From Parachlamydiales bacterium (GTDB lineage Bacteria > Chlamydiota > Chlamydiia > Chlamydiales > Rhabdochlamydiaceae), in assembly GCA_963705295.1 (NCBI GenBank), contig OY970065.1, positions 1,312,001 through 1,376,000 of the forward strand: a stretch of 64,000 nt of DNA, written 5' to 3'. Numbering within the stretch: the first letter of the stretch is position 1; each line of letters starts with the position of its first letter. Position numbers and translations under genes: made by a program. This document shows positions 970 to 2,429 of this stretch, in pieces. The notes below the pieces were generated by a model, which saw nothing but the letters and a program-made list of their open reading frames with translations, did no database searches and was not told where the DNA came from.

Positions 970-1951
970 ACAAGAATTGATGAAAGAAGCCAATAAAACA
1001 GGGTTTCGCCCTGAAATTATGGAAAAAGTTTGGCATTTGATGGCCATTCTTGATGGCATCAGTACACATCCCTATTTAAAGGATCGATTAGTTCTAAAAG
1101 GAGGTACGGCTTTAAATCTTTTCTTCTTTGACCTTCCTCGATTGTCTCTGGATATCGACCTCAACTATATTGGGAAATTGGATAGACAAGAAATGCTTCT
1201 GGAACGTCCTGAGATAGAAAAGGCACTAGAAGCGGTATTTCATAAAGAAGGCTTAAGCATTCGGCGAATCCCAGAAAAACATGCGGGAGGAAAATGGCAG
1301 CTTCGCTATGAAAGTGCTCTGGGAGGTAGTGGCAATCTAGAAGTAGATCTCAACTTTATGTTTAGAATGCCCTTGTACGAGATAAGCAAGCAACATTCGC
1401 GCGCGATTGGAACACGAACAACCAAAGAGATAGCGCTTCTGGATATCCATGAGCTTGGTGCTGGGAAAATTGTAGCGCTGTTTAACAGACGTGCTTCTCG
1501 TGACCTCTTCGATGCACATCAACTGTTGACGAAATGTTCTTTAAATGTCGAACAACTGCGGCTTGCATGCCTTGTGTATGGAGCAATGGGGTCAAAAGAC
1601 TGGCGCCAGATATCCATCGAAGATATTTCCTTTGAGGAAAAAGAGCTGAAAAACCAACTCATTCCTGTTCTTAGGAAACGTGCATATCGAAATGATGGTT
1701 GGCTCAGTTGGACGAATCAAATGCTTAGTGATTGTAAAAATGCTTTAAAGTCACTTTTCCCTTTGAAAGAAGGCGAACAGCTTTTTCTTAAAAACGTGTT
1801 TGAGAAAGGGGAGATTGACGCAACATTAATCACGCGAGATTACAATTTAATTCAGATTATCAATTCACATCCACTCTTACAATGGAAATTACAGCTTGCA
1901 TCCAAAAATAGAATTATGCCCAAGACAGGCTCCCCCTCGGCAAGCAGCTAA
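956..1951 (+). CDS. abiEii: AbiEii/AbiGii nucleotidyltransferase toxin
   Basis: LKGGTALNLF...RLSLDIDL motif, GKIVALFNRRASRDLFD; coupled to AbiEi; last codons run into the first 143-bp repeat. Confidence 0.85.
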   Translation: MKTSEQELMKEANKTGFRPEIMEKVWHLMAILDGISTHPYLKDRLVLKGGTALNLFFFDLPRLSLDIDLNYIGKLDRQEMLLERPEIEKALEAVFHKEGLSIRRIPEKHAGGKWQLRYESALGGSGNLEVDLNFMFRMPLYEISKQHSRAIGTRTTKEIALLDIHELGAGKIVALFNRRASRDLFDAHQLLTKCSLNVEQLRLACLVYGAMGSKDWRQISIEDISFEEKELKNQLIPVLRKRAYRNDGWLSWTNQMLSDCKNALKSLFPLKEGEQLFLKNVFEKGEIDATLITRDYNLIQIINSHPLLQWKLQLASKNRIMPKTGSPSASS

Positions 1952-2345
1952 AGCTGTCATGTCCGAGGGGCCGGTTTGCACGCAAGCGTGCTGCACTTCT
2001 CGTCCTGGCGTGAGCCAAATCATTGGCTCACTTCTTGCGCTAAAAGTGCGAACTCTTATTGCCCAAGACAGGCTCCCCCTCGGCAAGCAGCTAAAGCTGT
2101 CATGTCCGAGGGGCCGGTTTGCACGCAAGCGTGCTGCACTTCTCGTCCTGGCGTGAGCCAAATCATTGGCTCACTTCTTGCGCTAAAAGTGCGAACTCTT
2201 ATTGCCCAAGACAGGCTCCCCCTCGGCAAGCAGCTAAAGCTGTCATGTCCGAGGGGCCGGTTTGCACGCAAGCGTGCTGCACTTCTCGTCCTGGCGTGAG
2301 CCAAATCATTGGCTCACTTCTTGCGCTAAAAGTGCGAACTCTTAT
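1917..2345. repeat. Three identical tandem 143-bp structured repeats, each containing the 3'-terminal 13 nt of tRNA-Leu
   Basis: Units start at 1917, 2060 and 2203 with TGCCCAAGACAGG; a fourth copy of the 13-mer at 2346 is the tRNA end; internal hairpins CCCCTCGG/CCGAGGGG, GCACG/CGTGC, GTGAGCCAA/TTGGCTCAC. Confidence 0.97.
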
Positions 2346-2429
2346 TGCCCAAGACAGGACTCGAACCTGCACACCCTTTCGGGTAACAGAACCTAAATCT
2401 GTTGTGTCTACCAATTCCACCACCTGGGC
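2346..2429 (-). tRNA. tRNA-Leu (anticodon TAG)
   Basis: GCCCAGG/CTTGGGC acceptor stem, anticodon arm ACAGA-TTTAGGT-TCTGT, long variable arm, GGTTCGAGTCC T arm; no encoded CCA. Confidence 0.97.

Follow-up and report, generated by a model that had tools for sequence, protein, structure and literature searches.

The gene for tRNA-Leu(TAG) in the window (the whole stretch of 64,000 nucleotides that was analysed, part of a 2.13 Mb genome in a single contig) is followed by three gene-less units, each carrying a direct copy and a split inverted copy of the 3' end of the host tRNA; the array is, on balance, probably a set of non-autonomous mobile DNA cassettes that fold as single strands and are served by an enzyme in trans. 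The units represent a chlamydial family of cassettes that resemble tRNA-linked repeats (TLRs) and whose arms match the target, a kind of element that is already known from Escherichia coli and still unexplained.

Results

Structure of the array

Coordinates of the array, its parts and its neighbours are collected in Table 1. An earlier note had described three identical 143-bp units after tRNA-Leu(TAG), each closed by a regenerated tRNA 3' tail, and both statements were borne out: a repeat of period 143 with three copies of 100% identity was found at 1917–2358, including 13 nt common to the tRNA; the tail at each unit end is exact over 13 nt and matches 16/17 of tRNA positions 57–73 with a one-base gap at T60. 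Folding of one unit against shuffled sequences gave z −3.9 (tRNA strand) and −4.3 (other strand) as RNA; −4.6 (tRNA strand) and −3.9 (other strand) as DNA. When Rfam 15 (4227 families) was run against the array, the tRNA alone scored, the remaining matches having E values of 8–8.9.

Table 1: Features of the array behind tRNA-Leu(TAG) and of its neighbours (positions in the window; tRNA numbering in the remarks).
Feature	Positions	Strand	Remark
AbiEi-family antitoxin gene, neighbour	124..969	+	AbiEi/AbiEii type IV toxin-antitoxin pair
AbiEii-family nucleotidyltransferase gene, neighbour outside the unit	956..1951	+	runs into unit 3
Unit 3	1917..2059	−	identical; distal tRNA copy adjoins the AbiEii gene
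Unit 2	2060..2202	−	identical to unit 1
Unit 1, nearest the tRNA, 143 bp	2203..2345	−	
Direct copy of tRNA positions 57–73 without T60	2203..2218	−	13 nt exact
Variable hairpin P4	2219..2256	−	
Conserved core: box 1 (GAAGTG), hairpin P3 (2264–2277), box 2 (AACCGGC)	2256..2285	−	
Inverted copy, T-stem/T-loop positions 54–64	2283..2293	−	GA replaces TC opposite G57-A58
Hairpin P2	2296..2317	−	interrupts the inverted copy, between positions 64 and 65
Inverted copy of tRNA positions 65–73	2319..2327	−	7/9 match
Spacer past the tRNA end	2328..2345	−	degenerate form of the A-run/hairpin/T-run terminator-like segment of relatives
tRNA-Leu(TAG) gene	2346..2429	−	copied part: positions 57–73 (2346–2362)

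That the threefold repeat is an assembly artefact made from a single unit is highly improbable. The 100% identity of the copies and the occurrence of the longest identical arrays in few-contig assemblies speak for it; tandem arrays, some of non-identical units, nevertheless recur in many independent assemblies, slightly differing ones being present in fragmented assemblies too (L021, L030, L023), and such an artefact would alter the copy number alone and leave the family untouched.

Distribution of the units

Single related units were found behind tRNA-Leu(TAA), tRNA-Lys(TTT) and tRNA-Ser(TGA) of the source genome (BLAST and a survey of 37 tRNA/tmRNA genes), each closing with 17–18 nt of its own tRNA; the copies at other tRNAs with swapped tails that had been predicted are thus present at three further tRNAs of the same genome. 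A covariance model built from 40 units detected six units in the source genome and gave matches in 55 of the 101 family genomes, the highest numbers being 23 in one genome and six identical copies in tandem; no match to the model was obtained in the other 46, two near-complete genomes of the same genus among them. Of 401 genomes in the phylum, 42 gave a match to the core pattern, the reversed control giving 3; some five of the core-pattern matches that were retrieved, which are without a tRNA, are probably due to chance. On inspection, 16 of the 17 matches of a metagenome scan look like units. A scan of a genome collection returned 86 stretches, 51 of them without a clear chlamydial unit; within these 51, model matches fell in five loci, one borderline (E 0.0096). 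In viral contigs the core pattern matched 44 loci, none of which was confirmed by the covariance model, and plasmids and phages gave no match to the unit.

The 89 tRNA-proximal units (51 genomes) stand behind tRNAs for Leu (four anticodons), Ser (three), Lys, Phe, Met and Tyr and behind a tRNA called Thr. Over all unit loci Leu, Ser, Tyr, Lys(TTT), Phe and Met predominate among the host tRNAs, partly as a bias of the search, the first queries having been derived from Leu units.

Anatomy of the units

On the tRNA strand the family order is as follows: tRNA end, terminator-like hairpin, inverted copy of 65–73, P2, inverted copy of 54–64, box 1, P3, box 2, P4 and direct copy of 57–73. Most units open with the terminator-like hairpin and a T-run; in the Leu(TAG) array this segment is degenerate, and a small hairpin was flagged in the spacer region at 2321–2337 of the + strand. 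The inverted copy of 65–73 recurs in units 2 and 3 with its positions shifted by −143 and −286. Among 83 scorable units (6 of the 89 are without a scorable distal copy and were left out) the direct copy starts at position 57 in 81, a start that is partly fixed by the tRNA itself since G57-A58 is nearly invariant in tRNAs; it ends at position 73 in 63 and stops before it in 20. The bases of the inverted copy that face G57-A58 are TC in 58/89 units and GA in 20/89; on the tRNA strand, GA at this place would give tandem G-A pairs.

The split inverted copy of the host tRNA 3' end is the chief feature of the units and is absent from the earlier note, which had paired an internal 7-mer with tRNA positions 64–70 as a pseudo-acceptor stem. 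This register is not the conserved one: at least 6/7 pairs are formed by the 7-mer with positions 59–65, the family register, in 60/89 units and with 64–70 in 20/89; outside Leu-TAG the counts are 44/70 and 4/70, respectively.

Several deviating units were seen. At L122:4974–5073 (the same DNA as L202) a unit without P2 has a perfect, unbroken inverted copy of the tRNA-Tyr tail, as expected from template switching; a second unit 3.5 kb away retains P2. At L015:1680–1870 (G015) a long inverted-repeat, MITE-like insertion lies within hairpin P3. At L204:1183–1293 (G244; the same DNA as L105) a second model match on the opposite strand directly follows the first unit.

Matching of the arms to the host tRNA

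The inverted arms were scored against their own tRNA (80 units; L094, L118 and L145 left out as chance matches): 8.56 vs 5.71 ± 0.16 for permuted pairs (maximum 6.4 in 5000), a permutation value that, like all others here, is overstated by kinship among the units. The own tRNA was the best partner in 54 of these units, tied in 17 and beaten in 9. Matching was seen at no fewer than 12 tRNA types, and the arms follow even private tRNA variants, e.g., at tRNA-Lys of G005. In cases of disagreement between tRNA and distal copy, the inverted arm agreed twice with the tRNA and twice with the distal copy and was tied twice, an even split between a crossover in the T-loop and one in the acceptor strand. 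At L209 and L210 the distal copy is matched by the inverted T arm at least as well as the tRNA is, which would suit a unit that came from another tRNA or a replaced tRNA body.

Covariation, proposed earlier as a check, was found: two-sided changes occur in 28 of the 32 pairs of the named structure. In this structure 83% of cells pair vs 63% in shuffled alignments, a comparison inflated by kinship, and vs 32–41% in slid controls, over which the structure is favoured by having been drawn from the same sequences.

Filled sites, empty sites and arrays

Behind tRNA-Leu(TAG) of 19 relatives 11 sites were filled (one partly), 7 were empty and 1 lay at a contig end. The flank of the empty site recurs in L015, where it follows the unit, and in L035, where it follows unit and cargo; in filled sites a restored tRNA gene and a displaced direct 3' fragment are present. 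Adjacent units of arrays (46 pairs) were ≥97% alike in 19 pairs, 85–97% alike in 10 and <85% alike in 17, a few of the last values probably being mis-parsed; because neighbours are both near-identical and divergent, arrays appear to grow by duplication as well as by the arrival of different units.

Likeness of the non-target hairpins, a few units having wrongly parsed core boundaries, was 1.136 for units of the same genome at different tRNAs (53 pairs; null 0.94 ± 0.04, maximum 1.07) and 1.042 for units at the same tRNA in another genus (352 pairs; null 0.94 ± 0.02); for 63/89 units the nearest neighbour stands at another tRNA type. Both values exceed chance, and likeness is greater across the tRNAs of one genome than across genera at one tRNA, which implies retargeting. 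The pattern speaks for retargeting, or else conversion, that recurred within lineages, together with some transfer between like tRNAs; the likeness within a genome could alternatively come from gene conversion between long-resident units.

Integrase-less gene blocks of 1.8–7 kb, bounded by a long tRNA 3' fragment and a unit, were observed at L026, L108, L122 and L278, and hold toxin-antitoxin, Bro-N and metabolic genes; such small islands offer a vehicle for transfer between like tRNAs. At L283:380–900 (G345) a tRNA-Lys gene breaks off at the anticodon, where it joins an array of four units; the gene looks destroyed at this locus.

Neighbouring genes and candidate enzymes

Where the AbiEii toxin gene of the window meets unit 3, its original final codons are gone, and the unit supplies the last 11 codons and the stop. 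Neighbours of the units are variable cargo (Bro-N, AlbA_2, Fic, AbiJ, DUF3800, HepT, AbiE), and the AbiEi/AbiEii pair of the window is such cargo. A gene 77% identical to its AbiEii lies behind the same tRNA in G015 (L015). AbiEii adjoins or lies near units in G000, G015, G141 and G155; it is present in 87 of the 101 family genomes with up to 10 matches each, and a decoy link between units and AbiEii was rejected, there being no co-occurrence (49/55 unit-bearing vs 38/46 other genomes).

No recurring recombinase was detected among the unit neighbours (97 of 131 cluster representatives scanned). In the source genome three tyrosine recombinases and a broken reverse transcriptase were found, none beside a unit; one resolvase, a broken fragment of a Y1 transposase and one GIY-YIG match are all far from units. 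Extra tyrosine recombinases were rejected as a correlate (mean 3.5 in the 55 unit-bearing vs 3.8 in the 46 other genomes); more than two occur in only 34/55 unit-bearing genomes, and the two of several unit-rich genomes are presumably XerC and XerD. A tyrosine recombinase was present in 2 of 118 unit loci, in both outside the unit, and none of these loci held an intact parent element with an integrase inside the unit.

Reverse transcriptases likewise do not co-occur with units (15/55 unit-bearing vs 13/46 other genomes); group II intron reverse transcriptase genes shortly behind units at L072, L082 and L256 look like later insertions. No complement of CCA was found in the inverted copies inspected, which end at position 73 or run into genomic spacer. 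A tRNA-primed retroelement would call for a site complementary to the mature CCA end and for a linked reverse transcriptase, and neither was found. Among integrase, reverse transcriptase and AbiEii, compared across the 101 genomes, no mobilising enzyme was identified, and the units bear no visible likeness to a known recombinase site.

Signals of DNA or RNA structure

P2, P3 and P4 are almost purely Watson–Crick: with a hairpin finder that penalises every non-standard pair equally, G-T makes up 2 of 675 pairs in P2 and 1 of 305 in P3. In the inverted arms no clear excess of G-T was seen: G-T vs A-C, 15 vs 25 (acceptor arm; 9/89 units with fewer than 6/9 acceptor matches left out) and 25 vs 17 (T arm). 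On the tRNA strand, C(GNA)G loops, which are very stable in DNA, are enriched (21 vs 8.7 ± 2.9 expected), as is G(CTTG)C (20 vs 0.8), a loop stable in both RNA and DNA; GNRA loops (14 vs 13.6) and UUCG (1) are not enriched. The tRNA strand folds better than the opposite one in 53/60 units as DNA and in 43/60 as RNA. Strong helix covariation with almost no G-U, together with loops of the DNA type, favours folded single-stranded DNA over RNA; on these compositional signals the balance leans towards units that fold as DNA.

Comparison with the TLRs of E. coli

The likeness to the repeats behind E. coli tyrT to which the earlier note had pointed extends to a common plan, tested on 14 E. coli genes. 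According to PMC8144298, TLRs (the tyrT/tyrV RtT repeats, rrA/B/F and others) number 22 copies at ten loci, have been known since 1978 with no function assigned, lie directly behind a tRNA or rRNA gene in one to five copies and are defined by an 18–19-bp copy of the end of the upstream gene; rrA/B/F are transcribed, processed and bound by Hfq and CsrA, and a strain without all 22 copies has been built and grown. Both TLRs (100–180 bp) and chlamydial units are gene-less, stand singly or in tandem behind tRNA genes and end in a copy of the 3' end of the upstream gene.

For the 14 E. coli genes a target-matched inverted copy of the T arm was the best inverted match in 11; six of these reach into the T-loop and show the same alternatives there, GA in tyrT, tyrV, proK and serX, and TC in lysQ and lysV. 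The best inverted match of lysY and of argZ is the next tRNA, and no inverted copy was found for rrfB (5S rRNA). Several E. coli TLRs open with a terminator-like hairpin. The direct copy starts at 58–59 and includes CCA in E. coli, whereas the chlamydial one spans 57–73 without CCA; at 17 nt it is slightly shorter than the 18–19 bp of TLRs because the tRNA genes here are without CCA. The inverted copy of E. coli is shorter and, unlike the chlamydial one, not split by a P2-type hairpin.

The Rfam model RtT gave no match to the array at E up to 10, and the chlamydial model, with filters off, gave none to the RtT repeats, its best match (E 1.8) lying elsewhere in the locus. Since neither model recognises the other family, the chlamydial units resemble TLRs in build but do not match them in sequence. 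The words "inverted" and "mobile" are absent from the TLR text available of PMC8144298, and the literature searched, with most subscription journals outside the search, held no description of an inverted copy or of mobility; an older account is possible. A mobilome study (10.1101/2024.07.17.603846) recorded higher coverage at tyrT but attributed the signals of RNA genes to RNA/DNA hybrids.

Discussion

Mechanism considered and its alternatives

The following course is proposed for a cassette moved in trans. On folding of the tRNA-sense strand, the copy of the tRNA 3' end would pair with the inverted copy in a duplex of about 17 bp, with P2 bulged out near the T-stem/acceptor junction. This duplex would present a recombination site resembling a tRNA end, boxes 1 and 2 with P3 and P4 being the putative protein-binding part. 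A tyrosine recombinase in trans (host XerC/D or the integrase of a passing island) could then insert the unit, as with other folded-strand substrates, and would leave the duplication of 57–73 and a replacement terminator, so that the tRNA stays functional. The inverted arms might be re-copied from the new host tRNA through fold-back template switching; identical arrays such as that at Leu(TAG) would arise later by slippage or unequal exchange between direct repeats, and units may also hitchhike on small islands using the same tRNA. Of the two readings left open in the earlier note, accreted gene-less integrative units are supported by the copies at other tRNAs, the covariation and the likeness to tyrT; the pseudo-acceptor pairing is not supported, and the reading as tRNA-mimic small RNAs is disfavoured by the near absence of G-U pairs and the lack of enrichment of RNA tetraloops, even though the E. 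coli counterparts are transcribed and processed (PMC8144298).

It is unlikely that the units are RNA elements maintained by the host, i.e., 3' trailers that are co-transcribed with the tRNA and yield tRNA-like small RNAs of ~143 nt, switches of pre-tRNA processing that work by pairing of the inverted copy with the pre-tRNA tail, or decoys for tRNA-attacking toxins like AbiEii. Such elements would agree with the better folding of the tRNA strand under RNA energies (43/60 units), with the enriched G(CUUG)C loop (20 vs 0.8), with direct copies that end in 63/83 units at the discriminator, where a processing nuclease would cut, with the degenerate terminator-like spacer of the Leu(TAG) array, with the AbiEii genes near units in four genomes and with the processed, Hfq- and CsrA-binding RNAs of rrA/B/F. 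They are at odds with the scarcity of G-U pairs and the unremarkable counts of GNRA and UUCG loops, with the terminator-like hairpin and T-run at the start of most units, with the patchy distribution (46/101 family genomes without a match), with the similar spread of AbiEii over genomes with and without units and with the growth of E. coli freed of all 22 TLRs. A passive origin seems rather improbable as well: units would be the conserved attachment-site ends (a terminator with recombinase-binding arms) of larger tRNA-targeting islands that lost their interior; themselves immobile, these ends would have been kept and multiplied only through slippage, conversion and hitchhiking. The small islands bounded by a long tRNA fragment and a unit (L026, L108, L122, L278), the units serving as breakpoints for cargo (L035, L279, L285), the frequent damage of distal copies (20/83 ending before position 73), the variable defence and toxin-antitoxin genes next to them and mismatch types of the inverted arms that resemble neutral decay would all suit relics. 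Against this, no intact parent with an integrase inside the unit occurs in the 118 unit loci, the cargo-bearing islands use a different site with a longer tRNA fragment that starts in the anticodon arm, one unit family serves at least 12 tRNA types with matched arms, and lasting selection or repair is required for P2 and P3 to covary so strongly on both sides.

Relation to other elements

Islands with tyrosine integrases use subsites at the T-loop or the T-stem/acceptor junction and measure 2–200 kb (Islander; PMC4383910). The chlamydial units share with tRNA-targeting islands the regenerated tRNA end, the displaced 3' fragment, tandem arrays and damaged distal fragments; the empty sites in relatives that are expected of islands were found (7/19 at tRNA-Leu(TAG)), and the P2 split adjoins the T-stem/acceptor junction subsite. 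They differ from islands in their 143 bp without an integrase gene, in the internal inverted copy and in the spread of one family over many tRNA types.

Integron attC cassettes and the attP of CTX phage are recombination substrates in the form of folded single strands. Alike are the gene-less site with a bulged hairpin, strand-biased features, arrays growing beside a fixed site and cassette-like cargo nearby; the target of the chlamydial units is, however, a tRNA end, not attI or dif, and no integron integrase is nearby, so that this is a resemblance only. REP/REPIN sequences and non-autonomous hairpin elements derived from IS200/IS605 are moved by HUH transposases. They are likewise short palindromic non-coding units with conserved single-stranded boxes and tandem arrays, but are dispersed in intergenic DNA without a 17-bp duplication, and the source genome has a broken Y1 fragment only. 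A passing likeness to the hairpin ribozyme was dropped, as the spacing does not fit.

Significance

Beyond what a single E. coli genome displays, the chlamydial family reveals an inverted copy that follows the host, retargeting between tRNA types inside a lineage and structural signatures of the DNA rather than the RNA type. The old puzzle of the TLRs thereby becomes a hypothesis that can be put to the test in a laboratory strain. Should folded cassettes, addressed by a pair of short arms, prove to be inserted by a host enzyme, site-specific integration would have a new route, and defence-gene hotspots behind tRNA genes might be explained. As a tentative extension only, one may think of a class common to several phyla, with TLRs as members: gene-less single-stranded DNA cassettes that rewrite two arms from the tRNA on which they have landed, employ a host enzyme and open the site to defence genes; the arms of such target-programmed cassettes could serve as a retargetable guide. 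Island finders discard such units because of their size and missing integrase (PMC4383910).

Further loci

An integrase-bearing island without a unit lies in tRNA-Tyr outside the window (genome C1:886290–895000); an integrase stretch 79% identical to that of this island was seen just behind a tRNA-Tyr unit at L315. At L197:291–9715 (C1:1294291–1303715) two tandem genes of ~1565 codons with similar starts are located upstream of a variable region behind tRNA-Leu.
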